From contig NC_011297.1 in the NCBI RefSeq assembly GCF_000020965.1, forward strand, positions 1,428,525 to 1,460,524: DNA of 32,000 nt, given 5' to 3'. Every line of letters starts with the position of its first letter. Position 1 is the stretch's first letter. The stretch comes from Dictyoglomus thermophilum H-6-12 (GTDB lineage Bacteria > Dictyoglomota > Dictyoglomia > Dictyoglomales > Dictyoglomaceae). A program made the translations under genes and the position numbers. Below the pieces are notes generated by a model. The model saw only the letters and a program-made list of their open reading frames with translations, was not told the origin of the DNA and searched no databases. This document shows positions 5,398 to 31,828 of this stretch, piece after piece.

Positions 5398-7798
5398 TAA
5401 AGAAATTCCTCTCTTCTTTTAAAAGATCCATTGCAATCTCTTGAACTTTTTTGTAACTATACACAAAATCTTCTTTTCCAAATAAAAGAATTATATTTTG
5501 TCCAAACTTTGACCACTTTAAAAATTCAACTTCCATTAACGGTGGCTTAAGAAAGATTAAATACTTATATACTCTTAATGGCATCTTATCGGGATAAAAA
5601 TATACATCTTTTCCTTCAAAAAACTGTAGATCTTTTTCCCTACTCTTAGAAAAGCGTGCATCAACAAAAGCAGGATTAAAAGATCTTTTAGGAATTCTTA
5701 AATTTTTAATACCAAGCAAATCTGACAAACTTAGTCTTCTATCCTCCTTTTTAAGGTTAGAGAGGAAAATAGTAGGATTATTTATAGTCTTTACTAATTT
5801 TAAAAACTCTGTGGAAAATTTCTCATCTAAAAACCATTCTGCATCATCCCATATAACAATCTTATCTTTTTCCAGAGGCTTTGTTTTAAGCTCCCAAGGA
5901 GATATAGTCTCTTCGTTCCAATAAAATCTATTCCACCCAGGAGAGACAATAATATACTCTTTGCCTCTCTTTTTAACTTCATCTATAAGAAAGTCCTTTT
6001 CGGATTCATTTTCGAGGAAATAGAGAATTGCCTTTGTTTTTTCTCTTTTAGTTTCCTTTATTGCTTTTTCAGCCTCTCTCCACTCTTCTAAGTAGAAGTT
6101 AAAATACTCTCTTCCCTGATATCCTTCCTTCTCTATTCTCAAAATAATATCTAACGTTTGAGGAGATTCCTTAAAAGCATCTTCCTCAATACCAATAGAG
6201 AAAATAGGAGTTGATAAAACTTTCCCAGAGATATCCCCAATTTTAATCTTATATCTTCCCCCATTACCCATTTTTTCAAAATAAGCAATAACTGTTGAAC
6301 TTATCTTAAACCTTGGCTCCTCATTGCCCGGTCCAAAGGGAGGAAGTAAATCAAGTTCAGAGAGAAATTTACCAATATTCTCACTTTTAATCTTATCCAA
6401 AGATATCTCAGCATCTATTTTAACTTTTGGAGTAAAATCCACGTCTTTCCAAAGTTCATTTGCAAGCTTTATTGCATTAATCTTAAAAATTTCATAATCT
6501 TTTTCGAATAGGGAAAAACCAACTGCGCCTCTGTGTCCACCAAAATTTACCAAGTAGCTTGACAAATTAGATATAAAGTCAAATAAATTTACATCTTCTA
6601 CTCCTCTTCCAGAAAAAACGACAAAATCTCCTTCCTTCCTACCCAGAAAGAAGGGTACGTTATATTCCTCCACAAGCATAGAAGCAACAATTCCCATTAC
6701 CCCTCCCACATCCCTTCCCCACAAAGGATTATATAAAAATACTGCCTTATTATTCTCTATCTCTTCCTCTCTCAACATTTCCTTTGCTATTTCATAAACC
6801 CTCTCTACCTCTTCTCTCCTCTTCCTGTTAAATTCATCAAGCTTTTCACAAAGTATTTCTGCCTCTTCTACATTATCTGTAAGGAGCAGTCTAATTGCTT
6901 CTTCTACCTCTTTAAACCTACCTATGGAATTTATTCTCGGCGTTATATTAAAGATGACATCCTTTGTATTTATAATAGTATTTTTATCAAGCCCTACCTT
7001 TCTGATGAGAGTTTTGATCCCTACTAAGTCGGGATTTAAGAATTTTTCAAGACCAAATTTAACTAAGATTCTATTTTCATCTTTAAGTTCCATTAAATCT
7101 CCTAAGGTTCCTAAGGTTACCAACTCCAATATACCCTTTTCTTCATAAATATCTTTACCTATAAAATCTCCTAAAGCTTTTAAGAATTTAAAGGCAACCC
7201 CAACACCTGCCATATATGGATAAGGGTAATTATTTAAATAAGGATTAAATACAAGTAGGGCTTCTGGGATGTTTCCTTCCTCAGGTATATGGTGATCCGT
7301 CACAATAACCTCTACACCATTTTTCCTTAAATATTCAATCTCTTTTCTGCTTTTAATTCCACAATCCACAGTAATTAAAAGACTTACAAACTCATTTTGA
7401 GAAAGAGCTTTCTTAATACTTTTCTCCTTTAATCCATAACCCTCTTCCAACCTGTGAGGTATATAAAAACTTACATCCCATCCCCAATTAGATAAAACTC
7501 TATACATTATAGTTGTAGCCGTTATACCATCTACATCGTAATCTCCAAATATAAGTACTTTTCTTTTTGAATCTCTAAGCTTGACAAGAAAATTCATTGC
7601 TTTTTCTAAATCAGGAAAGTATAAAAATGGGTCATATAAGTCCTCTATCTTAGGATTTAAGAATCTCTTTGCCTGTAAAGAATCTTTTATTCCCCTATTC
7701 AAAAGGAGACGGGCAAGAAGAGGTGATACTCCAATTTCTTTTGCAAAAACCTCCTCTTGCCCTTTGTTTTCCTCAAAAAGGAGAATCCACCTTCTCAT
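5324..7798 (-). CDS. recJ: single-stranded-DNA-specific exonuclease RecJ with long C-terminal extension
   Basis: Carries DHH motifs (FGDYDVDGITA, VDCG, VTDHH) and DHHA1 (GGHRGAVGF). At 824 aa it runs about 250 residues past the part I recognise as the RecJ core. Confidence 0.9.
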   Translation of the reverse strand: MRRWILLFEENKGQEEVFAKEIGVSPLLARLLLNRGIKDSLQAKRFLNPKIEDLYDPFLYFPDLEKAMNFLVKLRDSKRKVLIFGDYDVDGITATTIMYRVLSNWGWDVSFYIPHRLEEGYGLKEKSIKKALSQNEFVSLLITVDCGIKSRKEIEYLRKNGVEVIVTDHHIPEEGNIPEALLVFNPYLNNYPYPYMAGVGVAFKFLKALGDFIGKDIYEEKGILELVTLGTLGDLMELKDENRILVKFGLEKFLNPDLVGIKTLIRKVGLDKNTIINTKDVIFNITPRINSIGRFKEVEEAIRLLLTDNVEEAEILCEKLDEFNRKRREEVERVYEIAKEMLREEEIENNKAVFLYNPLWGRDVGGVMGIVASMLVEEYNVPFFLGRKEGDFVVFSGRGVEDVNLFDFISNLSSYLVNFGGHRGAVGFSLFEKDYEIFKINAIKLANELWKDVDFTPKVKIDAEISLDKIKSENIGKFLSELDLLPPFGPGNEEPRFKISSTVIAYFEKMGNGGRYKIKIGDISGKVLSTPIFSIGIEEDAFKESPQTLDIILRIEKEGYQGREYFNFYLEEWREAEKAIKETKREKTKAILYFLENESEKDFLIDEVKKRGKEYIIVSPGWNRFYWNEETISPWELKTKPLEKDKIVIWDDAEWFLDEKFSTEFLKLVKTINNPTIFLSNLKKEDRRLSLSDLLGIKNLRIPKRSFNPAFVDARFSKSREKDLQFFEGKDVYFYPDKMPLRVYKYLIFLKPPLMEVEFLKWSKFGQNIILLFGKEDFVYSYKKVQEIAMDLLKEERNFFITQSHNFLLFLQKAKPSEIYSLLV

Positions 7799-14542: not shown

Positions 14543-15087
14543 TTTTTACCTCCTTTATAATATCTATCTTTCTCACTATATATACAACCACAATATTTTT
14601 GTCTATATAGGCCATACTCCTTAGACAAATTAACTCCCTCTCTATAACCCACTCTGAAATCTTCATAGTAAAACTCTATCTTATATTCATTAGCAAGGTA
14701 ATTTGCAATATCCTTAATAAGGTCGTGCCTCTGATAAGGACTCACAAGCATTGTAGTAGAAAAAAGATTAAATCCAAGCTCTTTTGCTTTTTCTACTGTT
14801 TTCTTTAAACGCATATAATAACACACAGGACATCTTTCTTTTTCTCTATAGACTACCTGCCTTATAAACTCTTCAAGAGCATAGTCATCTTCATAAACTA
14901 CCGGTAAATTTTGGTTCTCAGCAAAATCCTTTAGAGTATTTAAACGCATTGAATATTCTGTATAGGGATGAATGTTAGGATTATACCAAAAACCTGTAAC
15001 ATCAAAATTTTTTTCCCTCAATACCTTAAGAGGATAAGTAAGACAAGGAGCACAACAAATATGAATAAAGATTTTCTTATTGGTCAT
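14539..15087 (-). CDS. queH: epoxyqueuosine reductase QueH (DUF208)
   Basis: The N-terminal HICCAPC, the internal CPVCY and the C-terminal YCGC form the cysteine pattern of QueH/DUF208. It shares an operon with tgt and queA. Confidence 0.8.
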   Translation of the reverse strand: MTNKKIFIHICCAPCLTYPLKVLREKNFDVTGFWYNPNIHPYTEYSMRLNTLKDFAENQNLPVVYEDDYALEEFIRQVVYREKERCPVCYYMRLKKTVEKAKELGFNLFSTTMLVSPYQRHDLIKDIANYLANEYKIEFYYEDFRVGYREGVNLSKEYGLYRQKYCGCIYSEKDRYYKGGKK

Positions 15088-16081
15088 GATAATACCTCAT
15101 TATATGAGCTAAACCGAGAGGAGTTATAACTCTTCCCCTTGAAGTCCTCTGAATAAAACCAATTCTTAAAAGATAAGGTTCATATATAGACTCAATAGTT
15201 TCAGGAGACTCATTGAGAACTGCTGCCAGAGTTTTCAACCCCACAGGTCCTCCTGAGAATTTATCTTTTAAAGTAAAAAGAATCTTTCTATCTAACTCAT
15301 CAAGACCATTTTCATCAATACCAATTAATTCAAGAACTTTTTTAGTTTCTGTTAAATCAATATTTTTATTATCCCTTAAATCAACATAATCTTTTATCCT
15401 CTTTAAAATCCTATTTGCAATTCTGGGAACACCTCTTGATCTCTTAGCAACTTCATAAATAGATTCATAGGAAAGATTTAATCCAAGAATTTTTTGGGAT
15501 CTTTCAATAATCTTAACCATCTCTTCATGAGTATAAAAGTCAAGAGTTGCTATAAAGCCAAAACGATCTCTCAGAGGAGTACTAAGCAATGCAGGCCTTG
15601 TGGTTGCACCTATTAGGGTAAAGGGGGGAAGTTTTAGACTCAAAACTTTACCGCCTGGACCCTTTCCAGCCACAATGCTTATACTTCCGTCTTCTAAAGC
15701 AGAATAAAGTATTTCTTCCAAGGAAGGACTTAATCTGTGAATTTCATCTATAAAAATAACTCCCTTCTCTTCAATCCCTGTAAGTAAAGCTATCAAGTCA
15801 CCACTTTTTTGTATTGATGGAGCAGATATCATTTTAATCTGAGTATTTTGTTCTTCTGCTATTATCAAAGCAAGGGTAGTTTTTCCTACGCCGGGAGGTC
15901 CTACAAAAAGAATATGGTCTATGGCTTCCTCTCTTTTTTTAGCAGCATTAATTATTAAAGCTAATCTTTCTTTTATCTTTTCTTGCCCTATAAATTCCGA
16001 TAAACTTTTGGGCCTTAAAGCATTATCAAGAGCTGGCTCTCTTTGTACAATAGAAAAATTAGGAAACTTCTTCATTTTCAT
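15077..16081 (-). CDS. ruvB: Holliday junction branch migration DNA helicase RuvB
   Basis: Contains LRPKSLSEFIGQ, Walker A GPPGVGKTT, Walker B FIDEIHRL, RGVPRIANR, and a winged-helix C-terminus. The start could instead be the ATG at 16075, which has better SD spacing. Confidence 0.95.
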   Translation of the reverse strand: MKMKKFPNFSIVQREPALDNALRPKSLSEFIGQEKIKERLALIINAAKKREEAIDHILFVGPPGVGKTTLALIIAEEQNTQIKMISAPSIQKSGDLIALLTGIEEKGVIFIDEIHRLSPSLEEILYSALEDGSISIVAGKGPGGKVLSLKLPPFTLIGATTRPALLSTPLRDRFGFIATLDFYTHEEMVKIIERSQKILGLNLSYESIYEVAKRSRGVPRIANRILKRIKDYVDLRDNKNIDLTETKKVLELIGIDENGLDELDRKILFTLKDKFSGGPVGLKTLAAVLNESPETIESIYEPYLLRIGFIQRTSRGRVITPLGLAHIMRYYHDQ

Positions 16082-16668
16082 GGCTCCTGAGATAACCTCT
16101 TTAGAGCAAACTTTATAATCTCTTCAAGATTATCTAAACTTTTAAATTCTTTCCTTATATCTCTCATAACCAATTCTATATCCTTCTTATCATATCCTAA
16201 ATTCAAAAGAGCATTTTTTATTACATTTTCTTCGTCATTATAAACCCTCTTAGGAATAACACCTTTTATTTCAAGAAAAATCTTTTGAGCAATCTTCTTT
16301 CCAATTCCAGGTATATTTAAAAGTGTATTCAAATCTTCTTTTTCAAGCACCTCATAAAACTCTTTAGGAGGAAGCGTAGAAACAATCCTTAAAGCAATTT
16401 TTACCCCAACCCCCGTAATATTTTTAAGACTTTCAAACAAATCTCTTTCTTCTTCAGACAAAAAACCAAAAAGCTTTACATTATCTTTCTCTATAACCTC
16501 TGCCACATAGAGCAATACATTATCACCCAATTTTTCATTAAGCTTTAAAGCCAAATTCTTTCCAATATAAATCTTAAAACCAAAAGCTCCTGTATCAACT
16601 ACAACAAAATCTTCAGCTATCCTTAAAAGTTTTCCATAGATATGGTTTAAAAATACCAAAATCAACAA
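16078..16668 (-). CDS. ruvA: Holliday junction DNA helicase RuvA
   Basis: Has an OB-fold N-terminus (IYGKL...VVVDTGAFGFKIYI), two HhH motifs (ITGVGVKIA, IPGIGKKIA), and C-terminal domain III. The track start is a TTG. The in-frame TTG at 16662 has better spacing from the SD GGAAGG, so the 5' end is uncertain by 6 nt. Confidence 0.9.
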   Translation of the reverse strand: MLILVFLNHIYGKLLRIAEDFVVVDTGAFGFKIYIGKNLALKLNEKLGDNVLLYVAEVIEKDNVKLFGFLSEEERDLFESLKNITGVGVKIALRIVSTLPPKEFYEVLEKEDLNTLLNIPGIGKKIAQKIFLEIKGVIPKRVYNDEENVIKNALLNLGYDKKDIELVMRDIRKEFKSLDNLEEIIKFALKRLSQEP

Positions 16669-17138
16669 CCTTCCTGTTTATAAATGTAAGAAATACATAA
16701 AGCTAAAGCATCGGCTACATCATCTGGTTTAGGAATATCTTTTAATTTCAATACTTCTTTTACCATATACTGTACTTGATCTTTAGTAGCCCTACCGTAA
16801 CCTACCACCGAGAGTTTTACCTCAAGAGGAGTTAATATGGAAACCTCCCTCTGATGTTGTTGAGCTGCAAGAATTATAACACCCTGCGCCTGTCCTATAC
16901 TGATGGCAGTCTTGATATTTTTATTGAAAAAAACCTCTTCCATTACAACAGCATCGGGATTGTATAAATCTAAAAGAGAAGAGACTTGATCAAATAAATA
17001 ATTCAATCTCCTTCCAATACTCCAATTGGAAGGAGTAGTCAAAGCTCCATACTCAATTACAGCTATTTTGTCATCCTCTTTATTCAAAATGCCATAACCT
17101 GTTATTGCTGTTCCAGGATCAAACCCTATAACAATCAT
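16662..17138 (-). CDS. ruvC: crossover junction endodeoxyribonuclease RuvC
   Basis: Contains IIGFDPGTAITGYG, MEEVFF and DDVADALALC, the RuvC catalytic acidic residues. Length is 158 aa. Confidence 0.92.
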   Translation of the reverse strand: MIVIGFDPGTAITGYGILNKEDDKIAVIEYGALTTPSNWSIGRRLNYLFDQVSSLLDLYNPDAVVMEEVFFNKNIKTAISIGQAQGVIILAAQQHQREVSILTPLEVKLSVVGYGRATKDQVQYMVKEVLKLKDIPKPDDVADALALCISYIYKQEGC

Positions 17139-17888
17139 CTATGAGAGAGACTGCAAAATTTCATCGGGTATATCAAAATTAGCATAAGTCTTTTGCACAT
17201 CATCATGATCTTCAAGCTCTTCCATAAGTTTTAGAACCTTTTCAGCGTCGGGCCCATCTACAGGTACTACATTCTTAGGAACTTTTGTTACCTCAGCTTG
17301 GGTAATTTTATATCCCTTTTCCTCAAGTACATTCTTTACCTCAGAAAAGTTTTCAGGACTTGTTATAATCTCAACACTATCTCCGCTTATCTGCACATCT
17401 TCAGCCCCAGCCTCAAGAGCATCCGCTATCAATTGATCTTCATCTTTTACACTCTCTTTTTCAATGAATATACTCCCTTTATCCTCAAAAATCCAAGCAA
17501 CACAGCCTGCCTCTCCAAGGCTTCCTCCATGTTTAGTAAATATCCTTCTTATCTCAGCCGCAGTTCTATTTTTATTATCCGTAACCACCTCTACCATTAT
17601 TGCAACTCCGCCAGGTCCATATCCCTCATAGGTTACTTCCTCATAAGCAACCCCAGGAATAGCTCCTATTCCCCTCATTATAGCCTTCTCTATATTTTCT
17701 TTAGGCATATTTGCCTCTTTAGCCCTTTCAATGGCAGCTCTCAAACGAGGATTAGTCTCAGGATTTCCTCCACCATGTTTTGCTGCTATTATAATTTCCT
17801 TACTCAATTGAGAGAAAAGTTTACCCTTTTTAGCATCCGCTGCTGCCTTTCTATGTTTAATATTTGCCCACTTAGAGTGTCCTGACAT
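17139..17888 (-). CDS. yebC: YebC/PmpR family DNA-binding transcriptional regulator
   Basis: The N-terminus [25 protein letters not shown] is near-invariant in the family. The SD AAGGAGG lies upstream. Confidence 0.92.
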
Positions 17889-21291: not shown

Positions 21292-21348
21292 TTGACAAAT
21301 TTTTAATCGTAATGTTAGACTCTTTTAAAAAATATATAATCCGAGGTG
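21292..21348 (+). promoter_or_regulatory. candidate promoter (TTGACA-18 nt-TAGACT) and SD (GAGGTG) of the 7-gene plus-strand operon
   Basis: TTGACA lies at 21292-21297, TAGACT at 21316-21321, and GAGGTG at 21343-21348, which is 8 nt before the ATG at 21357. A second TATAAT at 21335-21340 is an alternative -10. Confidence 0.35.
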
Positions 21349-21356
21349 AATAAAAA

Positions 21357-22391
21357 ATGTCCGAAAAGTTTATGATTAAAGAAATAAGAGAAGGGCTCCA
21401 TATAATCAAGAATTACAAAAATCGCTGGGAAGAATTTGTGGAAGTTTCAAATAAAATAAAATCTTTTGAATTTCATAATATTATTTTTGTGGCAAGAGGA
21501 TCGTCAGATAACGCTGCTACATGGGGAAAATATTATATGGAATCCCATTTGAATATTCCTGTATCCTTATGTGCTCCATCTTTATTTACTATCTACAAAC
21601 TCCCTCCTAATCTTAAATCTTCCCTTGTTATTGCCATCTCCCAGTCTGGAGAAAGTGATGACATCTGTGAAGTCGTGAGAAAAGCCAATGAACAAGGAGC
21701 TTTGACTATTGGTATAACCAATAATCCTCAAGGAAAGCTAGCTCAAATAGCCCAAATAAATATTTTTCTAAACTCAGGAGTAGAAAGAAGTGTTGCAGCC
21801 ACCAAAACCTATTTATCCCAATTGGTCTCTATCTATTTTTTAACAAATTCAATTATAGGTAGAAGTGCATTAGAAGAATTTGATAAAATATTAAACGCTA
21901 TGGAAGATATACAAAAGAGAGAAGAGGAAATAAAAGAAAAAGTAAAACCATATAAATACATGGAACACTGTGCAATCCTTGGAAGAGGGTTTAATTTATC
22001 TACAGCTTTAGAAACTGCTCTAAAGCTCAAGGAAACCTCTTATATTATTGCTCAAGCCTACTCCTCAGCAGATTTTATGCATGGTCCCCTTGCTCTTGCC
22101 TCGGAAGGATTTCCTGTATTTTTCTTCGTTCCTAAAGGAGAAAGTATGGAACATTCCTTGGAAGTTTTAGGAACCTTAAAGGAAAAGAGAAGCGATATAT
22201 TTATATTTACCAATGAAGCTGAGCTTACAAAAGAGTATGAGGGAATCTATATAGATTGTGATGTACCAGAATACGTCACCCCTATACCTTTTATTTACCC
22301 AGCTCAAATTTTTGCTTACTATCTTGCTGAGATTAAAGGAAGAGACCCTGACAATCCTAGAAACATAAGAAAGGTTACTATTACAAGATGA
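21357..22391 (+). CDS. double-SIS-domain protein resembling the isomerase half of GlmS (no glutaminase domain)
   Basis: Contains VARGSSDNAA and AISQSGESDD (SIS phosphosugar loops), a second SIS with LGRG...LETALKLKETSYI, and a C-terminus DNPRNIRKVTITR resembling the GlmS C-terminal tail. Length is 344 aa. Confidence 0.8.
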   Translation: MSEKFMIKEIREGLHIIKNYKNRWEEFVEVSNKIKSFEFHNIIFVARGSSDNAATWGKYYMESHLNIPVSLCAPSLFTIYKLPPNLKSSLVIAISQSGESDDICEVVRKANEQGALTIGITNNPQGKLAQIAQINIFLNSGVERSVAATKTYLSQLVSIYFLTNSIIGRSALEEFDKILNAMEDIQKREEEIKEKVKPYKYMEHCAILGRGFNLSTALETALKLKETSYIIAQAYSSADFMHGPLALASEGFPVFFFVPKGESMEHSLEVLGTLKEKRSDIFIFTNEAELTKEYEGIYIDCDVPEYVTPIPFIYPAQIFAYYLAEIKGRDPDNPRNIRKVTITR

Positions 22392-22861
22392 ACCACATAT
22401 TTCAAATATTAAAAGATTTATCACAAAATCCAATATTCATAATCCCCATATTGGTAGCTATCATCACGCAAGGAATAAAAGGGTTAATAAGAAGTCTTCA
22501 GGAGAAAAAATTCCTCTGGAGAGCCTTTTTTGAGTGGGGCGGAATGCCAAGTTCTCACTCAGCCCTTGTAGTATCACTATCTCTCATAATTGGCATAAAA
22601 GAAGGCTTCAATTCTACTCTATATATTCTTTCCATGTTCTTTGCAGGTATAGTAATAGCAGATGCCATTGGTGTGAGACTTGCCACCGAGGAACAAGCAA
22701 AAGTTATAAACAAAATTATACAAAAGGAATTAAAAGATCCTGAGTTAAAAGAGATCTACTTAAAGGAGTCTATAGGGCATACGCCCATAGAGGCTATAAC
22801 TGGAGGAATTATCGGCCTCATCTTAGCCCATGTTATATACTACACATTTTTTGTAAAATGA
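22388..22861 (+). CDS. divergent PAP2 family membrane protein (DUF212)
   Basis: Contains GGMPSSHSALV and IGHTPIEAITGG in a four-TM 157-aa protein. The start overlaps the SIS gene stop (ATGA). Confidence 0.75.
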   Translation: MNHIFQILKDLSQNPIFIIPILVAIITQGIKGLIRSLQEKKFLWRAFFEWGGMPSSHSALVVSLSLIIGIKEGFNSTLYILSMFFAGIVIADAIGVRLATEEQAKVINKIIQKELKDPELKEIYLKESIGHTPIEAITGGIIGLILAHVIYYTFFVK

Positions 22862-24057
22862 AAATAGCATTCTTTAGTGATACCTATATTCCTCAGAAGA
22901 ATGGCGTAGCTACCTCTTTAAATTTTCTAAAGAAGACTTTAGAAGAGGAGAATCACTCCATTTACCTTTTTATACCCAATATTCCCAACCTTCCTAAAGA
23001 AAAAAATATATATATCCTTCCATCCATAACATTTCCCTTTCAGAAAGAGCACCGAGTTGCCCTACCCTACTCTCTAAAATATGACTTTATGATAAGAAAA
23101 ATAAATCCTCATGTAATACACACCCACTCTCCTTTTTCTCTCGGAATCTTTGGACTATACGAAGGGAAAAGGATAAAAAGACCAATAATCCATACTTATC
23201 ATACACTTCTTCCAGATTATGCCTATTACATATGGGATCACTTTCCAAATTTTATAAAGCAAAACATAATAGATGAAGAAAAAGCTAGAAAAATAGCTAT
23301 CTGGATAAGCAGAGAATACTGTAATCATTCCGATTTAGTTATTGCTCCCTCAACTAAAATAAAGAGACTTCTTAAAGAATTTGGGGTAAAAAAACCCATA
23401 GAAGTACTTCCTAATGGCATAGATTTGGATAAATTTAGGAAAATTCCTAAAAATGAAGCAAGAAAAGATTTAAATCTCCCCCTTAATGCAGTACTACTTC
23501 TTTTTGTAGGAAGACTTGGAAAGGAAAAAAATATTGAATTTCTCATCGAAGTACTAGAAATTATTAAGAATAATACAGATAAATTGATCTATCTGGTTAT
23601 CGTGGGAGATAATCCCGATAAAAGAGTAATGGAAGAGCTAAAAAATAAAGCTAAGGCTCTAAACGTCTACGATAGGACTATTTTTACTGGATATTTGGAT
23701 TATGATAAAGTTATTAAAGCCTATTACGCCTCTGATATATTTGTATTTTCTTCAATTACAGAAACTCAAGGCTTAGTCATTCTTGAAGCGATGGCATCAG
23801 GACTTCCTGTGGTGGCTATAGAAGATGATGCAATTTCAGATTTTGTTAAAAATGGAATAAATGGTTTTTTAATACCCAATAATCAAGAAGCTAAGAAAAT
23901 ATTTTCAGAAAAAATAATAACCCTCATTGAGAATAGGGATTTATATGAAAAAATGTCTATAAATGCCCTTGATAACTCAAAGCTTTTCCATATAAAAATC
24001 CTTAATAAAAAACTTCTCTCCTTGTATGAATACCTGATAAAAGAATATAATATATAA
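22858..24057 (+). CDS. GT4-family glycosyltransferase (resembles glycolipid/diacylglycerol glycosyltransferases)
   Basis: The N-terminus is MKIAFFSDTYIPQKNGVATSL. The protein also has GRLGKEKN and the E-x7-E motif (ETQGLVILEAMASGLPVV). The start overlaps the PAP2 gene stop (ATGA). Confidence 0.85.
   Translation: MKIAFFSDTYIPQKNGVATSLNFLKKTLEEENHSIYLFIPNIPNLPKEKNIYILPSITFPFQKEHRVALPYSLKYDFMIRKINPHVIHTHSPFSLGIFGLYEGKRIKRPIIHTYHTLLPDYAYYIWDHFPNFIKQNIIDEEKARKIAIWISREYCNHSDLVIAPSTKIKRLLKEFGVKKPIEVLPNGIDLDKFRKIPKNEARKDLNLPLNAVLLLFVGRLGKEKNIEFLIEVLEIIKNNTDKLIYLVIVGDNPDKRVMEELKNKAKALNVYDRTIFTGYLDYDKVIKAYYASDIFVFSSITETQGLVILEAMASGLPVVAIEDDAISDFVKNGINGFLIPNNQEAKKIFSEKIITLIENRDLYEKMSINALDNSKLFHIKILNKKLLSLYEYLIKEYNI
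24022..24051 (+). promoter_or_regulatory. weak candidate internal promoter (TTGTAT-18 nt-TATAAT) ahead of nurA
   Basis: The -10 ends 8 nt before the SD-less ATG at 24060. The element lies inside the AT-rich 3' end of the GT4 gene, so a chance match is quite possible. Confidence 0.25.
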
Positions 24058-24059
24058 TA

Positions 24060-25169
24060 ATGCCCGATTTTATATCTCTCTTTATATCCGAAATAAAGAA
24101 AAAAAGACCCATTCTTGAGGAACTTCTTATTAAAAGAAGTCTTAGTGACAAATCTTTTGTTTCAGAGTTTATTGGGAAGATTTGGAATAAACTTTCAGAC
24201 TCCTATCAGTTTACCAACAAACCAACATTTGCCGTAGATGCTTCCCAAAGAACCCTATCCTTCTCTTTAGGACCTTATTTAATAATAACCCAAGCTCTTG
24301 CCATAGGCTCCAATGGATATGAAAAAGCTCTTGTATCTCTCGAGCCTGTATGGGGTTCTATACCAGAAACTCAACTGGGGCTCTTAAGAGACCTTTTAAT
24401 GCAAGATTTGGAAATTAGGCTTGCCCTTCAAATTATTAAAGAAAACAAAGCTCCTTTGATATTATTTATCGATGGCTCTTTATTATCAAGAATCTCATAC
24501 CTTTTGAGGTATTTATACAGTTTTGAAGATGAAAATTACAAAAACCTTGCTCGAGAAGTACTAATAAACACTTTAGATCTTATAAATTCTTCCAAGAACA
24601 ATGTAGATGTCATCTCTATTTCTAAGTCTTCCCGAAATACTTTTCTTTTCCAAATCCTATCTCTTGACAATCCTGATATAGATAAAACAACACCTTACAA
24701 ACCCACTGATAGCGAGATCTTAAGCATATTTACTTCAGAGCCCGGATATACAACTCCACTATTGATAGGAGCAGAGATGGGGCTTGGTCACAAACAATTA
24801 GAGATCATAGAAAAGGACCCAAACCTTCAAAATATTCTTAATAATTCTCCAGCCTTTTATACCTTCTATATAAGACTTATGCCAAGAGATCAGTTCCTAA
24901 GGATAGACTTCCCAGCCAATATGGTAGGAGAAAAGTCGAGTATACTCTCCGTAAATTACTTTTGGGGGAAAGATATAAATATAGATCAAATCTTAGGAGT
25001 ATTAAGAGAAAATTGTGTAAATACGAAGATATATCAAACTCCTTTGTATTTTGTGGACCAAATTGTTAGAATAAAAAGAGAACCTGACTTAGAAAGGTAT
25101 ATAATGATTTTGAAAACTGAATTTCCAGGAATTATTGAACTTGACAGAAGTCAAGGGAGGTTCTACTAA
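24060..25169 (+). CDS. nurA: NurA-domain 5'-3' nuclease
   Basis: A D-E-D catalytic pattern appears in NurA-like context: TFAVDASQ (D60), QDLEIRLAL (E118) and LILFIDGSLL (D138). The protein is 369 aa and lies directly upstream of herA. Confidence 0.7.
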   Translation: MPDFISLFISEIKKKRPILEELLIKRSLSDKSFVSEFIGKIWNKLSDSYQFTNKPTFAVDASQRTLSFSLGPYLIITQALAIGSNGYEKALVSLEPVWGSIPETQLGLLRDLLMQDLEIRLALQIIKENKAPLILFIDGSLLSRISYLLRYLYSFEDENYKNLAREVLINTLDLINSSKNNVDVISISKSSRNTFLFQILSLDNPDIDKTTPYKPTDSEILSIFTSEPGYTTPLLIGAEMGLGHKQLEIIEKDPNLQNILNNSPAFYTFYIRLMPRDQFLRIDFPANMVGEKSSILSVNYFWGKDINIDQILGVLRENCVNTKIYQTPLYFVDQIVRIKREPDLERYIMILKTEFPGIIELDRSQGRFY

Positions 25170-25172
25170 TAA

Positions 25173-26855
25173 ATGGAATTAAAATGTGTAGGATACTTAG
25201 TAGGAGAAAGCTATTGTGATAATTTCCAATTTATTACCAACGAAGAATTAGCTCCTAAAAGGCTCGAATATGTGGTAATCAAAGGGATTGCCTCTTCAAA
25301 TGAGGAAGTAGAAGTATTAGCTCAAGTAGAAAGTCTAAAAGCCTTTTCAGATGTACTCTCAGAAGATCAAGAATACGATGCTACAACAAAACTTTTGGAA
25401 TTAAACTACAAGATTCCTCTAAAACTTATAGCTTCTGCAAGAGTACTAGGATATTTGGACAAAGATGGAAATATTCTTCTTCCTAGATCTGTATCTCTCC
25501 CAGGTTCTCCTGTATACCTTGCCCCCGATGACCTTCTTCAAAGATTCTTTACCCACAATAAAAGCACTGCTATTGAAATAGGTACTCTTCTTTACAGACC
25601 TAACGTAAAAGTTACCCTTGACCCTAACGGCCTTAGAAGGCACCTTGCCATAATAGCTCAAACAGGGGCAGGAAAATCTTATCTCACAGGACTTCTTTTA
25701 GAGAAACTTGTAAAGTTAGGAGCAACTATACTGGTCTTTGATCCTAATAGTGATTATGTACTTTTAAGAAGAAAAAGAAACAATTTAAAAGAATTCTCGT
25801 CTATTGCCCATAATGTCACTATTTATAGAATTCCTAAAGTACAAGGAAGATTTTCCGATGATATGATAGGTGGTGTGGAACCTTACTCCATAAGGTTTAG
25901 CGAATTAGAAAATGAACAAATAGCAGAAATTCTTGGAATATCCGAATATAGCAATATAAGAGATGCCGTTGAAAAAGCAATTGAAGAATTAAGAGAGTCA
26001 AGAATAGATTTCACTCCCAATGAGTTATATGAGAAACTTAAGGATATGGCAGGAATAGAAGAAAAAGATGAAGAAGATTTTAGTCTGGACTTTGATGACT
26101 ACGAAAGAAAAATTATAGAAAAAATGGAAAAAAAGAATAAGAAAAAATATCCTGAGGAAACTATGATTGGAGCAAGGAAGGCACTAAAATATGTAAAATG
26201 GATAAAGGATTATCCTATATGGGGATTTAAAGATATCTCTCCTGAAAAAATATTAAAACCTGCCCACATATCAGTCATTGATCTTGCAGGAATAGAAAAA
26301 AATCTTCAAGATCTTGTAGTTAGTAAACTCTTAAATGATATATGGACAAAAGCAAAGTCTGAGGGTCTTCCCTATCCTTTGTTTATAGTACTCGAAGAGG
26401 CCCATAACTTAGTGCCAAAAGAAAAGGGAGAAAAATTAAAAAGTGCAAGAATAATAAACTCCATCGCTGCAGAGGGTAGAAAATTTAAAGTATTTCTTAT
26501 AGTAGTTACCCAAAGACCTTATAAAATAAGCAGTAATACTCTTTCTCAATGCGGAAGTCAAATCATTATGAGACTCACAAATCCCACTGATCAGACTGCA
26601 GTGAAAGAAGCTTCCGAAGCTCTCTCTGAGAATCTATTCCAGGATCTTCCAGGATTAAATATTGGAGAAGCAATAATTCTAGGAAGATTAACCAAAATAC
26701 CTGTAATGGTAAAGATTGGAGAAAGAGAAACTGCAGAGGGTGGATTTGATATTGACTTAGAAGAAGAATTCCAAAAAGCTTTAGACAACATAGAAAGTAC
26801 TATGATAGAAAAGAATGATACAGAAATTCTACCTGACTTTGGGAGTGAAATCTAA
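25173..26855 (+). CDS. herA: HerA-type (FtsK/HerA superfamily, DUF87) hexameric DNA translocase/helicase
   Basis: Has a HAS-barrel-like N-terminus, RRHLAIIAQTGAGKSY (Walker A, K168), PLFIVLEEAHNL (Walker B), and RKFKVFLIVVTQRP...IIMRLTNPTD. The SD GGGAGG lies upstream. Confidence 0.85.
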   Translation: MELKCVGYLVGESYCDNFQFITNEELAPKRLEYVVIKGIASSNEEVEVLAQVESLKAFSDVLSEDQEYDATTKLLELNYKIPLKLIASARVLGYLDKDGNILLPRSVSLPGSPVYLAPDDLLQRFFTHNKSTAIEIGTLLYRPNVKVTLDPNGLRRHLAIIAQTGAGKSYLTGLLLEKLVKLGATILVFDPNSDYVLLRRKRNNLKEFSSIAHNVTIYRIPKVQGRFSDDMIGGVEPYSIRFSELENEQIAEILGISEYSNIRDAVEKAIEELRESRIDFTPNELYEKLKDMAGIEEKDEEDFSLDFDDYERKIIEKMEKKNKKKYPEETMIGARKALKYVKWIKDYPIWGFKDISPEKILKPAHISVIDLAGIEKNLQDLVVSKLLNDIWTKAKSEGLPYPLFIVLEEAHNLVPKEKGEKLKSARIINSIAAEGRKFKVFLIVVTQRPYKISSNTLSQCGSQIIMRLTNPTDQTAVKEASEALSENLFQDLPGLNIGEAIILGRLTKIPVMVKIGERETAEGGFDIDLEEEFQKALDNIESTMIEKNDTEILPDFGSEI

Positions 26856-28036
26856 TGATCAAAATCGTGATTACTGCAGACAATCACTTGGGAAAGTATT
26901 ACAAGAAACTGCTTCCAGAAAGATTGCAAGAACGAAGAAAAAGGTTAAGAAATGTCTTTGAGGAAGTAGTAAATTACGCTATAGAAGAAAAAGCAGATAT
27001 CTTTATCCATGCTGGAGACTTATTTGATTCCTCAACTCCCAGGAACCAAGATCTAACTTTTATTGCTCGTGAATTTTCAAAAATGGTAAAAAATAACATA
27101 AAAATATACGCTATTGGAGGAAATCATGATGCTCCAAATATGCTTGAGTCTGACTCTTACCCTATAAGGATTTTTGAAGAAGCAGGATTAATAAAGACCT
27201 TTTCCTCGCAGTCTACAATAAGCTATGAAATCTTCGAAAAAGATAACATAAGTATACTTGTTTCTGGCCTATCTCATGACCCAAGAAAAAAGGGAAAAAT
27301 AGACCCATTAGAAAAAAATGTAATAGTTCCTCCAGATTTCCCTAAGGAAAACAATTTATTCAAGATCCTAATTCTTCACTACTCCTTTGAAAAATTTGCT
27401 CACCCCAAAGCCCAAGAGCCCCAAGTCTCCACTAACACTCTTTACGATTTGCCTTTTGATCTTTATATATTAGGTCACTTACATGAACAAAACACCTATC
27501 GCTTTGCCAACAAACATGTAATTATTCCTGGCAGTACAGAAAGATTTGATTTTGGAGAAGAAAATCTTAAACCAGGATTTTATCTCTTAACTATTGAAAA
27601 GGGAAGGATAAATTATGAACATATAGAGCTGAACGTTCAGCCAATGAAAAATTTAGAAATTAAATTAACAGAAATACCACAAAAAGAACCTACAAATTCC
27701 ATTATAGAGAGAATAATAAAAAACTCCCACAAAGACCTACTTTTAAAATGCAAACTTGTGGGAGAGATTCCACTCTCCATGTATCAGTCTATTAACTTTA
27801 GTAAAATTCTCGAGGCAGGAATAAACTCTAACTTTTTGTTTGATCTTGATACCCAAAACTTAAGAATAAAGGGTGAAGAGATAAATACCCTCCCTGCTCC
27901 AGAGCTTAGTGTTGACAAAAATCTTGAAATAATTACAAAAAAATATATAGAAGAAGTTCCTGAAGACAGAGAGATAATATTAGAGGCTTTGAAATGGATA
28001 AAAGAAGAATTAAAAAGTAGAGAAATAATACTATGA
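26855..28036 (+). CDS. mre11: Mre11/SbcD-type metallophosphoesterase nuclease
   Basis: All calcineurin-like phosphoesterase motifs are present: ITADNHLG, HAGDLFD, GGNHD, ILHYS and LGHLHE. A C-terminal helical tail is plausible for Rad50 binding. The start overlaps the herA stop (TAATG). Confidence 0.85.
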   Translation: MIKIVITADNHLGKYYKKLLPERLQERRKRLRNVFEEVVNYAIEEKADIFIHAGDLFDSSTPRNQDLTFIAREFSKMVKNNIKIYAIGGNHDAPNMLESDSYPIRIFEEAGLIKTFSSQSTISYEIFEKDNISILVSGLSHDPRKKGKIDPLEKNVIVPPDFPKENNLFKILILHYSFEKFAHPKAQEPQVSTNTLYDLPFDLYILGHLHEQNTYRFANKHVIIPGSTERFDFGEENLKPGFYLLTIEKGRINYEHIELNVQPMKNLEIKLTEIPQKEPTNSIIERIIKNSHKDLLLKCKLVGEIPLSMYQSINFSKILEAGINSNFLFDLDTQNLRIKGEEINTLPAPELSVDKNLEIITKKYIEEVPEDREIILEALKWIKEELKSREIIL

Positions 28037-30984
28037 TTAAACTTGTAAGTCTTACTCTTAGGAACTTTAAACAATATCGAACTGCTCATATAAACTTTCC
28101 TGAAAAAGGTAAGATCCTTATCAAGGGAAAAAATGAGGCAGGAAAAAGCACCATATTTGAAGCTATAGGCTTTGCCCTATTTGGGAAACCGGTATATGTG
28201 GGTACCATTTCAAACCTGATAAAGTTTAATACAGAAAAAGCAGAAATTGAACTTGTAGTAAAAACTGAAGATAAAATCTTAACTATAAGCAGAACACTTA
28301 AGAAAAACCCTCAAGGTAGTACCTCTCAGGAAGCTACACTTCGCATAAAGCAAAATAATAATCCAACTCCTATTATCGTAACAAACCCTAGCAGTGTAAA
28401 TCCAAGAATTATAAAAGAAATAGGCATAGACCAAGATATATTCATAAATACCTGCTTCATAGGGCAGAAAAGGTTAGAAACATTAGAGAATTTAGGAGCT
28501 AAAGAAAGACAACAACTTATATCTAAACTATTTAATTTAGATTACTTTGTAAATCTAATAGAAAAGGCAAAAGATACAAGAAAGGAATTTATAAGTCAAA
28601 AAGAGAACTATGAACTTATTAGAAAAGCAGCAGAAGCCAAGAAAGAACTCCCTGAAATTAAGGAAAGAATTAATGAAATAGAAAACAGAATAAAGGAAAT
28701 CGAAAAGATAGAATTATCTCAAAATATTGTAAAAAAAGAGGAACTCTTACATAACTTAGAAGAAGAGATTAAAAAATTAGAGGAAGAATTTGATAAAGTA
28801 AAAAAGGATGTGGAACTATTAGAAAAGTGCAAAGAAGAGGAGAAAATTATAAGCGAAATAAAAAGTATTGAGGAAAAAATCAAAGTACTGGAAAGACAGA
28901 AGAGTGAAAACTTACAAAGAATTAAAAATTTAGAGGAAAGGATAAAAGAAGAAGGAGAGATAAGAGAAAAAATAAGGTTTTTGGAGGAAGTAAAAAATAT
29001 AAAATCTCAAATTGATGAAATCACAAAAACAATAAATGAGGAAAAATTAAAAATCTCAAAACTGGAAGAGATAATCCCAAATCTGTCAGAAAAGGTAGAA
29101 AAATATAAAGAAACAATTAAGGAAATAGAAAAAGAAAAAACTTTATTAGATGAAATTAACAAAGTAGAAAATGAAATCCAGAAACTTGAAGAAAGAAAAA
29201 GAAATCTTGAAAAAAGAAAAGAAAGGTTAGAAAAAATATTAAATAACTTTTCAAATACCAAAGAAATTCTTGATCCTTATAAAAAAGCATTAGAGTACAA
29301 AGAAAAAGAAATCCAAATTTTCTCATTACAAAAAGATTTCTCAAAGGCTAAAAATAGACTAATTCTTACTTCTACCTTAACTATCCTTTCCTTTGTTTTA
29401 TCCTTTGCTTTAAACTACTTTTTCCTAATACCCTCCTTGGTACTCCTAATCTTTAGTTTTCTTACCTATAGAAATTATTCTCAAACCAATAAAGATCTCA
29501 CTAAACAATTAAGCATTTTGGAATTTATAAAAAAAGACATTCCTGACCATCTTAAAGATAAAAATCAAAAAGAGTTAGAACAAGAGCTCCAAAATCTTGA
29601 AAAAGAACTTGAAGCTAAGAAAATTAAAACAGAAAAAATAATAGAATCGTTAAAGACAAAAGCCTCAAGTATAGACACTTTAACCTTAATAGAGGAAAGG
29701 ACAAAGCTAAAAAGAGAAATTGACAACATAAACTCACTAAAAACTGAGGCTGAAAGATTAATCTCCGAGCTTGCCTCAAGGCTTAGTTGTAATAAAGATA
29801 TTAAATCTGTAGAAGAAAAATTACTAAAGGCACAAGAGATCTTAGAAAAGAAAAAGCAAGAACTTAAAGAAAAAGAAACAGAAATGGAAAATCTAAAAAA
29901 ATCCGATCCCCTTCCTGACAAGGAACTTTTAGTTTTAAGCTCTGAAAAAGGCTCTTTGGAAAATAGGCTTAAAAATATAGAGGAAGATAAAAAAGAGTTA
30001 GCTGATAAAGAGAAGAGAAAAATAGAGCTTGAAGAAGATATCAAAAGAGCACAAGATGAAATTGAAAGGCTATCGAAAAAATTACCTTCATTAAGCGAAG
30101 ATTATATAAATAAATTGAAGGATACTATAAAAGACTTAGAGGAAAGAAAGGTAAAAGAAAAATACGACAGTATATCATCCCAACTGAACAATAAGAGGGG
30201 ACAAAGAGAGGCTGTAGAAAAAGAATATACCAAACTTATCGAAGAATTCAAAAATCGTTTTAAGGAAGAAAATTGGAAAGACTATGCTTCAATAAGCATA
30301 GACCCTAAGGAAAAAGAAATGCTTTTGAGTCAAAAAGAAGAACTTATCAAAACCCTCGGAGAAAAGGAGGCTATACTTGAAGAGTATGAGAGCAAAACAG
30401 GACAAAAAAGGGATGACTTGATACCAGAAAAAGTAGAAGAAGACTATAAAGAGATAGAAAGAAAAATACAAAAAATGGATTATGCTATCAAGATTGCTGA
30501 AAGTACAAGAGAAAGCATATTAAAATCTATACTTCCAAGAACCATGGCTTTTATGCAAAGAATATTACCTATCTTAACATCAGATAGATACCATTACGCC
30601 GAGATTGATGAAGATTATAAACTAAGAGTATACACCAGCGATACTAAAGATCCATTAGGAAAAGAAAGATTCAGTGGTGGAACTCAGGACCAGATCTCTT
30701 TAGCTTTAAGGCTTGCTTTTGCTATGGCAACTCTTCCCCAAGATAAAGGAGTACAACCTAAATTCATATTCTTAGATGAACCTTTAGGGTCCTTTGATGA
30801 AGACAGAGCAAAAGGACTATTATATCTCATAACCCAAGGAGAAGTATCAGAATTTTTTGATCAAATATTTGTAGTAACTCACGTACCGATAGACGAAGAC
30901 CTATTCGATGAAGTCTATTACATAGATAATGGACAAATAACAAAAATAGATAATGATAATCCTAATCTAAATTTAGAGTTTTAA
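28033..30984 (+). CDS. rad50: Rad50/SbcC-like SMC-family ATPase, hook-less, with central hydrophobic hairpin
   Basis: Carries Walker A GKNEAGKST (K38), the Q-loop region FIGQ, signature FSGGTQDQ (S881), Walker B FIFLDEP (D915 E916), and the H-loop VVTHV. K/E-rich heptad-like arms several hundred aa long lie on each side of residues 443-479. The start overlaps the mre11 stop (ATGA). Confidence 0.85.
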   Translation: MIKLVSLTLRNFKQYRTAHINFPEKGKILIKGKNEAGKSTIFEAIGFALFGKPVYVGTISNLIKFNTEKAEIELVVKTEDKILTISRTLKKNPQGSTSQEATLRIKQNNNPTPIIVTNPSSVNPRIIKEIGIDQDIFINTCFIGQKRLETLENLGAKERQQLISKLFNLDYFVNLIEKAKDTRKEFISQKENYELIRKAAEAKKELPEIKERINEIENRIKEIEKIELSQNIVKKEELLHNLEEEIKKLEEEFDKVKKDVELLEKCKEEEKIISEIKSIEEKIKVLERQKSENLQRIKNLEERIKEEGEIREKIRFLEEVKNIKSQIDEITKTINEEKLKISKLEEIIPNLSEKVEKYKETIKEIEKEKTLLDEINKVENEIQKLEERKRNLEKRKERLEKILNNFSNTKEILDPYKKALEYKEKEIQIFSLQKDFSKAKNRLILTSTLTILSFVLSFALNYFFLIPSLVLLIFSFLTYRNYSQTNKDLTKQLSILEFIKKDIPDHLKDKNQKELEQELQNLEKELEAKKIKTEKIIESLKTKASSIDTLTLIEERTKLKREIDNINSLKTEAERLISELASRLSCNKDIKSVEEKLLKAQEILEKKKQELKEKETEMENLKKSDPLPDKELLVLSSEKGSLENRLKNIEEDKKELADKEKRKIELEEDIKRAQDEIERLSKKLPSLSEDYINKLKDTIKDLEERKVKEKYDSISSQLNNKRGQREAVEKEYTKLIEEFKNRFKEENWKDYASISIDPKEKEMLLSQKEELIKTLGEKEAILEEYESKTGQKRDDLIPEKVEEDYKEIERKIQKMDYAIKIAESTRESILKSILPRTMAFMQRILPILTSDRYHYAEIDEDYKLRVYTSDTKDPLGKERFSGGTQDQISLALRLAFAMATLPQDKGVQPKFIFLDEPLGSFDEDRAKGLLYLITQGEVSEFFDQIFVVTHVPIDEDLFDEVYYIDNGQITKIDNDNPNLNLEF
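29359..29469 (+). other. predicted helical-hairpin membrane anchor at the Rad50 coiled-coil apex (aa 443-479)
   Basis: The segment reads KAKNR-LILTSTLTILSFVLSFAL-NY-FFLIPSLVLLIFSFLTY-RNYSQTNK. Two hydrophobic stretches of about 17-18 aa are joined by a short turn, with basic residues on both flanks. Confidence 0.6.
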
Positions 30985-31828
30985 GATATTCTTTAAATTG
31001 TTCTCCAAGTCCTTCTCTTTTAAGAGCAAGCTCTACTGAGGCTATTAAAAATCCAAGTTTACTACCTGTATCATACCTCTTACCTTTAAATTCATAAGCA
31101 TATATGGCTTCTTTCTCCAAAAGCATTTTCAACCCATCCGTAAGCTGTATTTCTCCCCCTCTTCCAGGCTTAACTTTCTCAAGCATAGGAAATATCTCAG
31201 GAGTTAATATATACCTTCCTACAATAGCAAGATCAGAAGGTGCCTCATCTACCGACGGTTTCTCTACAAGATCAGTTACTTGATATATACCCTCATCAAT
31301 CTTCTTACCTGCTATAACCCCATAATTTTTAACCTCGTCTTTTGGAACTCTCTCTACAGCTATGACTGAGCATTTGTATCTTTCATATATCTCTATCATC
31401 TGTTTCATACAAGGCACATCACTTACAATAAGATCATCGCTCAAAATTACAGCAAAAGGTTCATTCTTAACAAGTTCTTTGGTAACCAAAACAGCATGAC
31501 CAAGCCCAAGAGGTTCTTTCTGCCTAATATAATAGACAGTAGCAAGCTCTGAGATCTCCCTTACCTGTCTCAGTAAGTCCAATTCTCCTTTTTTCTGTAA
31601 GAAATATTCCAGTTCAAAAGATATATCAAAATGATCTTCGATCGCCCTCTTATTCCTGCCTGTGACAATAATTATCTCGTCAATTCCAGAATTTACAGCC
31701 TCCTCTACTGCATATTGAATTATAGGCTTATCCACTACAGGAAGCATCTCCTTAGGTTGCGCCTTTGTAGCTGGAAGAAATCTAGTACCAAGACCTGCAG
31801 CAGGAAAGACAGCCTTATTTATAGACAT
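30962..31828 (-). CDS. galU: UTP--glucose-1-phosphate uridylyltransferase GalU
   Basis: The N-terminus AVFPAAGLGTRFLPATKAQPKEMLPVVDKP, then LGLGHAV and VEKP, are classic GalU strings. The SD GGGGG lies upstream. Confidence 0.92.
   Translation of the reverse strand: MSINKAVFPAAGLGTRFLPATKAQPKEMLPVVDKPIIQYAVEEAVNSGIDEIIIVTGRNKRAIEDHFDISFELEYFLQKKGELDLLRQVREISELATVYYIRQKEPLGLGHAVLVTKELVKNEPFAVILSDDLIVSDVPCMKQMIEIYERYKCSVIAVERVPKDEVKNYGVIAGKKIDEGIYQVTDLVEKPSVDEAPSDLAIVGRYILTPEIFPMLEKVKPGRGGEIQLTDGLKMLLEKEAIYAYEFKGKRYDTGSKLGFLIASVELALKREGLGEQFKEYLKTLNLD

Follow-up and report, generated by a model that had tools for sequence, protein, structure and literature searches.

A nurA-herA-mre11-rad50 operon of Dictyoglomus thermophilum with a hydrophobic hairpin in place of the Rad50 zinc hook

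The window analysed here is a stretch of 32,000 nucleotides (nt) of the chromosome of Dictyoglomus thermophilum H-6-12, low in guanine and cytosine (GC, 0.33), in which four open reading frames in a row on the plus strand encode the nuclease NurA (24060-25169), the ATPase HerA (25173-26855), an Mre11-type phosphoesterase (26855-28036) and a Rad50-type ATPase (28033-30984). The Rad50 of this four-gene module is a member of a distinct and widespread clade, spanning bacteria and archaea, in which a hydrophobic helical hairpin is found instead of the zinc hook. It is considered reasonably probable that the whole constitutes a chromosomal operon for the processing of DNA ends, with a resection of the archaeal kind and with the Rad50 hairpin acting as a membrane anchor that replaces the hook. 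Bacterial nurA-herA-mre11-rad50 clusters as such are not unprecedented; what appears undescribed in the searchable literature is a Rad50 of the hairpin type and the linkage of such a Rad50 to HerA-NurA. The novelty is that of a variant of a known system, namely a hook-less Rad50 clade, probably membrane-anchored and hard-wired to HerA-NurA.

Rad50 is an ABC ATPase of the Rad50/SbcC type, 983 amino acids (aa) in length, with a long coiled coil. Pfam profiles assign it to AAA_23 (E 9.7e-23), with a sub-threshold match to SbcC_Walker_B, and AAA_27, which we take to be a family seeded on YhaN, reaches 31 bits against a gathering score of 22 over residues 3-92 only. The NCBIfam model Rad50_Sulf gives 108 bits against an equivalog cut-off of 1000, which makes the protein a homologue and not an equivalog, and the best match in PDB is the Rad50 of M. 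jannaschii. The N-terminal ATPase half (28033-28527, plus strand), assigned from motifs, profile, PDB match and the AlphaFold2 (AF2) model, holds the Walker A motif GKNEAGKS at residues 32-39 and the Q-loop. The C-terminal half (30430-30981, plus strand) is the best-conserved part of the clade and holds the signature FSGGT at 880-884 (SGG at 881), the Walker B motif FIFLDE at 911-916 and the H-loop. Between the two head halves the AF2 model has long helices spanning residues 170-848.

The zinc hook is regarded as near-universal and functionally essential in Mre11-Rad50 (MR) complexes, where its known job is dimerisation of the apex. As an earlier note on this DNA had said, the window Rad50 is hook-less: no CxxC was found over the whole protein, whose sole cysteines are at 141, 266 and 586. 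The position of the hook is taken by a hydrophobic hairpin of aa 443-479 (29359-29469, plus strand; LILTSTLTILSFVLSFALNYFFLIPSLVLLIFSFLTY), recognised by hydropathy and AF2, with 37 residues free of any charge, a central proline, net-positive (basic) flanks and a Kyte-Doolittle mean that peaks at 2.23 over 19 aa. The AF2 model of the apex consists of a helix of residues 410-459, a break at 460-461 in the middle of the stretch and a helix of 462-500, continuous with both arms of the coiled coil. The hairpin, which defines the separate Rad50 clade, was missed by the earlier reading, as was a tightly coupled block of SIS, DUF212 and GT4 genes upstream of the module.

Hairpin and hook are mutually exclusive among the relatives of this protein. 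All 82 homologues of an initial search have one of the two at their centre, a hydrophobic stretch or a CxxC, and lack the other, and with further loci added the 112 relatives comprise 55 of the hairpin type, 57 of the hook (CxxC) type and none with both. The stretch of hairpin-type Rad50s consists of 36-54 charge-free residues (median 38) with a mean Kyte-Doolittle value of about 2; a central proline is present in 84% of these sequences, and the flanks on the two sides carry net charges of +2.2 and +2.8 per 12 residues. The sequence of the hairpin varies between phyla and only its hydrophobic character is kept. In a neighbour-joining tree of the head halves only (N- and C-terminal, 74 non-redundant sequences) the hairpin type is likewise split from the hook type, with 92 of 100 bootstraps. 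When 1.84 billion cluster representatives (clusters at 50% identity) were searched exhaustively with phmmer, 306 proteins were found at E <= 1e-30; the best 150 were examined, and the 139 full-length ones among them were scored for central hydrophobicity by a hydropathy window. A hydrophobic centre was found in 124 of these 139 and a central CxxC in none. The database names of close relatives are generic (SMC family ATPase, exonuclease SbcC, Smc), some being labelled 'YhaN' by JGI, and the alignment of the C-terminal head, when searched against a large protein index, returned short fragments only, with taxon names including Fervidicoccus, Korarchaeota and MSBL1.

By published description a similar protein is SbcE (YhaN) of Bacillus subtilis, which is SbcC-like and devoid of CxxC, and whose "unique central domain", wholly insoluble, is hydrophobic with a conserved proline (Krishnamurthy et al. 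2010, PMC2811018). Its gene adjoins that of the SbcD-like SbcF (YhaO) in an operon of yhaO, yhaN and yhaM, SbcE and SbcF accumulate at the competence pole, and sbcE mutants are transformed less, the effect being mild (PMC2811018). The likeness to the window thus lies in a CxxC-less, SMC-like ATPase with a hydrophobic, proline-containing centre, encoded beside an Mre11/SbcD-like nuclease. The difference is that the published operon is without HerA or NurA, whereas the window pair is joined to nurA-herA; no YhaM-like gene was found at the window module, where nurA-herA stand before the mre11-rad50 pair and a convergent NTP_transferase gene after it. No membrane-hairpin reading of the central domain was given in the SbcE paper (PMC2811018), and the hairpin would offer a structural reading both of this unexplained domain and of the polar localisation of SbcE in competent cells. 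An SbcE-like pair of the Clostridial Monoglobus groups with the hairpin type in the head tree (92/100 bootstraps), on a very long branch at a distance of about 2.1. Whether all these proteins form an unrecognised and widespread MR class is rated an even question. Such a class would comprise at least 124 clusters (50% identity) in Dictyoglomota, Chloroflexota, Caldisericota, other bacteria and several archaeal lineages, would have exchanged the hook for a transmembrane hairpin so that the apex of a coiled coil of about 40 nm is anchored in the membrane, would often be hard-wired to HerA-NurA with SbcE as a stripped-down member, and would keep end processing, whether in repair, on incoming DNA or in defence, tethered to the envelope.

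Most likely the hairpin is inserted with its two helices in the membrane, the ATPase head and both arms lying in the cytoplasm, because its hydropathy, its length, the positive flanks on both sides and a conservation that is independent of sequence are all consistent with such a structure. The alternative that survives best, though it is judged unlikely, is a soluble dimerisation element, in which two Rad50 apices would build a buried four-helix bundle without any membrane anchor and would in this way do what the hook is known to do. Several points weigh against the anchor and in favour of the bundle. The evidence for membrane insertion consists of hydropathy and flank charge only, and the hydrophobic helices of the hairpin, with 17-18 residues, are short for a full span of the bilayer. 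In growing B. subtilis SbcE-YFP (a fusion to yellow fluorescent protein) also forms foci at the nucleoid (PMC2811018). Moreover, 15 of the 139 closest relatives (for example P0224, P0235, P0244 and P0250) have neither a hook nor a hydrophobic centre, so the chemistry of the apex is evolvable. Against the bundle stands the charge-free stretch itself, which with its 36-54 residues and hydropathy of about 2 lies above the classical threshold for transmembrane segments on the Kyte-Doolittle scale; a net positive charge on either flank agrees with the positive-inside rule, and a free variation of sequence with retained hydrophobicity is typical of lipid-facing helices and not of a specific interface. 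As a separate observation, most of the 15 hook-less, non-hydrophobic proteins appear rich in alanine and arginine, which suggests high-GC hosts, and their apex may be a third solution. The hook-swapped clade can be regarded as a natural experiment on the purpose of the Rad50 apex, dimerisation or tethering, and it suggests that some prokaryotes anchor the processing of double-strand breaks to the membrane.

The identities that the earlier note had given to the four genes are borne out, well beyond what chance would give, by Pfam and NCBIfam profile searches and by the fold of NurA, and every catalytic motif it had named was located. Among characterised proteins the nearest to HerA, Mre11 and Rad50 by sequence, and to NurA by fold, are archaeal, and all four score far under the curated equivalog cut-offs. 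NurA (369 aa) is assigned to the family of 5'-3' nucleases with an RNase H-like fold by PF09376 (E 3.9e-18, 66 bits against a cut-off of 21), while NurA_Sulf of NCBIfam with 34 bits against an equivalog cut-off of 400 marks it as a homologue and not an equivalog. Its catalytic acids D60, E118 and D138 are invariant across 16 Dictyoglomaceae sequences. It is 98% identical to the RefSeq entry 'DNA double-strand break repair nuclease NurA [Dictyoglomus thermophilum]', so that the gene already bears this name. Comparison with PDB sequences, both as a single sequence and as a profile, gave no match, and the search by fold alone succeeded: the AF2 model (predicted local distance difference test, pLDDT, 82.7; predicted template modelling score, pTM, 0.83) has as its top Foldseek matches 2ygk, 9x1m and 3taz (E 2e-14 to 3e-11), which are the archaeal NurA structures of S. 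solfataricus, T. kodakarensis and P. furiosus, with the related folds of EndoV, PIWI and RNase H next in rank.

HerA (560 aa) is assigned to the hexameric DNA translocases of the HerA/FtsK class by its matches to DUF87 (E 1e-37, 131 bits) and to the archaeal HerA models; the HAS barrel is matched weakly, with 18.8 bits under a cut-off of 25.2. Walker A (TGAGKS, 164-169) and Walker B (LEEAH, 407-411) are both invariant. The archaeal HerA models of NCBIfam give 232 (NF040819) and 197 bits, the former against the cut-off of 970 of the curated archaeal equivalog, and HerA is consequently again a homologue and not an equivalog. Its best PDB matches are the archaeal HerA structures 9x1l and 4d2i, with 161 bits for T. 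kodakarensis and 155 for Sulfolobus, against 85-119 bits for solved anti-phage HerA structures and 23 for the Deinococcus HerA (7f6d). Mre11 (393 aa) is an Mre11/SbcD-type phosphoesterase matched by Metallophos (E 3.7e-15, 57 bits) and, over residues 7-306, by Mre11_Sulfo of NCBIfam with 102 bits, which under an equivalog cut-off of 500 denotes a homologue and not an equivalog. All five motifs are present (DNH 9-11, GDLFD 53-57, GNHD 89-92, H175 and GHLH 207-210), and the best PDB matches are the Mre11 proteins of M. jannaschii and P. furiosus.

The junctions between the genes are exactly those that the earlier note had claimed. The gap between nurA and herA is 3 nt, itself a second TAA, herA and mre11 overlap by 1 nt (TAATG), and mre11 and rad50 overlap by 4 nt (ATGA), so that all four genes are adjacent or overlapping on one strand and are predicted to form a single operon. 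These junctions imply translational coupling of the four genes; where the earlier note had spoken of "co-translation", the tight coupling is real but translational coupling is the correct term. The reading frame of nurA is closed by tandem in-frame TAA stops (TAATAA, 25167-25172), directly 3' of which lies the ATG of herA. A good Shine-Dalgarno sequence (GGAGG) precedes herA and none is obvious before nurA or rad50, which fits a coupling to the preceding gene.

The conserved linkage for which the earlier note had proposed a neighbourhood check was found both in the Dictyoglomaceae and in more than 20 loci overall. In the Dictyoglomaceae the module is a core syntenic locus, chromosomal and vertically maintained, and it is present in 6 of 6 Dictyoglomota genomes recovered. 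Identity to the window proteins falls in step from D. turgidum to divergent Dictyoglomota (HerA from 93 to 71%, NurA from 83 to 46%, Mre11 from 83 to 50%), the proteins other than NurA being 66-93% identical to their D. turgidum counterparts. A scan of the HerA alignment against one genome per species yielded 302 relatives. The best 80 of these, from which the taxonomy was taken, are nearly all bacterial and belong to Dictyoglomota, Caldisericota, many Chloroflexota, Armatimonadota, Acidobacteriota and unclassified bacteria, with two archaea; outside the family the identity is 54% in Caldisericota and 41-51% in Chloroflexota, Armatimonadota and Acidobacteriota. When the flanking genes were annotated with hidden Markov models built from the module proteins, the order nurA-herA-mre11-rad50 was found in more than 20 loci of Dictyoglomota, Chloroflexota, unclassified bacteria and a few archaea, and every complete linked Rad50 in them is of the hairpin type. 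The four-gene module is thus common in Chloroflexota and related phyla, with identities between modules of about 40% for HerA, about 30% for Mre11, 26-35% for Rad50 and about 23% for NurA. Its carriers include the cultured Ktedonobacter sp. SOSP1-85 (Chloroflexota) and a metagenome-assembled genome of Bathyarchaeia (L048), and the same module is found on the metagenomic contigs L006, L008 and L101. Such carriers could supply thermostable proteins for structures of the complete MR-HerA-NurA machine.

The arrangement is subject to variation. A recurrent variant of the Caldisericota type (L016 and L100) has a radical-SAM gene before herA and a gene of the histone-deacetylase family between herA and mre11 (11677-12585 in L016, 2946-3854 in L100), and in L016 nurA is displaced about 4 kb downstream of rad50. 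L102 and Monoglobus have MR pairs of the hairpin type that lack HerA-NurA. In Ktedonobacter sp. SOSP1-85 (L045, 4431-8296) nurA is immediately preceded, on its own strand, by genes of a UvrD-like helicase and of an Hsp70/MreB-like ATPase.

The known system with which the module is most readily compared is the HerA-Mre11-Rad50-NurA operon of archaea (Sulfolobus, Pyrococcus, Thermococcus), with which it shares the four families, their union in one tightly coupled operon and intact catalytic motifs. It differs in its bacterial host, in an order that begins with nurA, as the earlier note had correctly pointed out against the order of model archaea, in a Rad50 without CxxC, with a hydrophobic hairpin and in a head-domain clade of its own, and in a probable upstream extension by the SIS, DUF212 and GT4 genes. 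The earlier note had further held that bacteria do not join HerA/NurA to Mre11/Rad50, which is contradicted by the hairpin-type loci above and by clusters in Oceanithermus, Pontibacillus and Priestia. In Oceanithermus profundus homologues of SbcD and SbcC lie downstream of nurA-hepA (Blesa et al. 2017, PMC5448004). A Pontibacillus locus is annotated in RefSeq, in the order of the window, as NurA, ATP-binding protein, metallophosphoesterase and SMC family ATPase, and Priestia megaterium has an unannotated locus with the same four open reading frames. These clusters are alike in being bacterial, in the four families and in having nurA first; the Rad50 proteins of Pontibacillus and Priestia have the canonical CxxC at their centre (PCPICERPLG in Pontibacillus) and lack a hydrophobic stretch, and their identity to the window proteins is 25% for HerA, 21% for Mre11 and 26-31% for Rad50, NurA being undetected by BLAST. 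The NurA-HerA (HepA) of Deinococcus-Thermus has end-resection activity in vitro (PMC9960219), but there the pair is unlinked to the MR genes, HerA is only remotely similar and the NurA structures are outside the top fold matches. The view of HerA-NurA as rare in bacteria and unlinked to MR is corrected by these findings.

In the mechanism that is favoured, Mre11-Rad50 would recognise and clip DNA ends, the HerA hexamer would feed the duplex into the NurA dimer for processive 5'-3' resection, and, as in thermophilic archaea, the resulting 3' tails would be passed on to recombinational repair by RecA. The Rad50 hairpin would be inserted in the cytoplasmic membrane with its arms and ATPase head on the cytoplasmic side, and two hairpins could pair within the bilayer, replacing the dimerisation of the hook and tethering end processing to the envelope. 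The analysis shows the identities of the genes, their motifs, folds, operon structure and phyletic spread, the exclusivity of hairpin and hook and the split of the clades; we infer the enzymatic activities, the formation of complexes, the repair role and the membrane insertion, and the course of resection is modelled on knowledge of these families (PMC3326311, PMC9960219). End processing of the archaeal kind is suggested because the motifs are intact and the closest characterised homologues are archaeal repair proteins, while synteny and housekeeping flanks in the Dictyoglomaceae favour DNA repair over mobile defence. Repair is leaned towards as the primary role, although roles in repair, in defence and on DNA that crosses the membrane are not mutually exclusive. 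Two points count against it. Deletion of nurA or herA in Deinococcus/Thermus has a modest or even positive effect on damage resistance, and the part of bacterial HerA-NurA in repair is debated (PMC9960219). In addition, some relatives lie beside defence-like or mobile genes, namely an integrase and TerB_N in L004, BrxL_N in L003 and an OLD-family nuclease in L048.

The latter neighbours belong to the case for an anti-phage or anti-plasmid system, in which a membrane-tethered MR together with HerA-NurA would destroy incoming linear foreign DNA; this is regarded as rather improbable. HerA and SMC-like ATPases recur in immune systems: the anti-phage HerA of Sir2-HerA and DUF4297-HerA shares the hexameric ATPase fold, and the SMC-type proteins Lamassu LmuB and Wadjet JetC share the Rad50-like ABC head with coiled coil. 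The PADLOC models of HerA give up to 174 bits on the window HerA, and the LmuB model PDLC03859 gives 98 bits on Rad50. A membrane-anchored end degrader would also be well placed at sites of DNA entry, and a destruction of extrachromosomal DNA by HerA-NurA was raised as a speculation by Blackwood et al. (PMC3326311). However, the anti-phage HerA models of NCBIfam score lower than the archaeal repair HerA models and far under their own cut-offs (NF042944, 128 bits against 850; NF042943, 120 against 800), NurA had no match among PADLOC models, and no Sir2, DUF4297, LmuA, LmuC or JetABD was found in the cluster by profile scans, the partners being NurA and a complete Mre11. Foreign-DNA defence, which the earlier note had raised, is without contextual support in the Dictyoglomaceae, where the locus is syntenic and has housekeeping neighbours; it is present in all recovered genomes of the phylum. 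In other bacterial phyla the flanks are mostly metabolic, and searches of plasmids, phages and viral contigs found no close relatives of the module; the plasmid search gave instead the hook-type Bacillaceae clusters and the SbcE-like pair of Monoglobus. Two very divergent hairpin-type relatives were noticed, one in L004 (6335-13924, GC 24%, Rad50 of 1307 aa) beside integrase, DUF2971 and TerB_N genes, the other in L003 (3803-9773, Promethearchaeota, Rad50 of 1574 aa) beside a BrxL_N gene, and both may be offshoots recruited for defence.

Hardly probable is a main role on DNA that crosses the membrane, in natural transformation or transfer from cell to cell, with the anchored MR and the HerA pump at the site of uptake or export. 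The presence of SbcE/SbcF at the competence pole and the reduced transformation of sbcE mutants agree with it (PMC2811018), HerA relatives are known to drive DNA transfer (CedD of NCBIfam matches the window HerA with 82 bits, and Thermus TdtA is found in the literature), and a membrane hairpin would suit an envelope-associated role. Nevertheless, no competence, pilus or conjugation genes were found in the window or in the related loci inspected, HerA scores far higher on repair-type HerA models than on those of CedD or the TraD type, no transmembrane segment was found in it, and in B. subtilis transformation is only mildly affected in sbcE mutants (PMC2811018).

A recent single transfer of an archaeal herA-mre11-rad50-nurA operon into Dictyoglomus, which is the reading of an archaeal-style module in a bacterium, is just as improbable. 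Each of the four proteins has its closest characterised homologue in archaea, Dictyoglomus is thermophilic and lives in habitats where archaea are also found, and hairpin-type modules do occur in archaea (Bathyarchaeia L048, archaeon L082, and the name matches to Fervidicoccus, Korarchaeota and MSBL1), but the GC (0.33-0.34) and skew of the module equal those of its flanks, synteny is kept and the divergence of the locus follows that of the host, bacteria make up the great majority of the nearest relatives outside the family, the gene order is unlike that of model archaea and the Rad50 belongs to the hairpin clade and not to the hook type of characterised archaeal Rad50s. Composition, divergence and nearest relatives all make a recent import unlikely.

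Upstream of nurA and in the same orientation lie genes of SIS (21357-22391), DUF212 or divergent PAP2 (22388-22861) and a GT4 glycosyltransferase (22858-24057), all on the plus strand. They overlap one another by 4 nt and end 2 nt short of nurA, so that their coupling is as tight as within the module, and the same seven-gene block with the same flanks is found in D. turgidum and in divergent Dictyoglomota, amid syntenic housekeeping neighbours. The seven-gene same-strand block was found only in Dictyoglomota; SIS, DUF212 and GT4 were accordingly rejected as parts of the module, their linkage to it being absent outside that phylum, and are probably co-transcribed, lineage-specific partners. The best sigma-70-like promoter match, TTGACA-18-TAGACT with TG (21292-21321, plus strand), stands before the SIS gene and is no more than a match to the consensus; sigma-70-like sites are no more numerous in the region than chance would give, and this is the sole strong promoter-like one. 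No terminator-like site was found on the plus strand within the seven-gene block, including between the four module genes. With one strong promoter-like site before SIS and no such terminator in the block, a seven-gene transcript that would start upstream of SIS is plausible. By this arrangement genes of the envelope or of sugar metabolism are coupled to an end-processing module with a probable membrane anchor.

The downstream boundary of the module is formed by the convergent, GalU-like NTP_transferase gene (30962-31828, minus strand), whose place next to rad50 is conserved in the Dictyoglomaceae; the 3' ends of the two genes overlap by 23 nt (30962-30984), which leaves no space for an intergenic terminator. 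Other genes of the window are ruvABC and yebC (yebC-ruvC-ruvA-ruvB at 15077-17888), tgt, queA, secDF, a PolX with PHP domain (2804-4546) and an unusually long recJ of 824 aa (5324-7798, minus strand). The RecJ of Deinococcus binds HerA through an additional domain at its C-terminus (PMC4663267).

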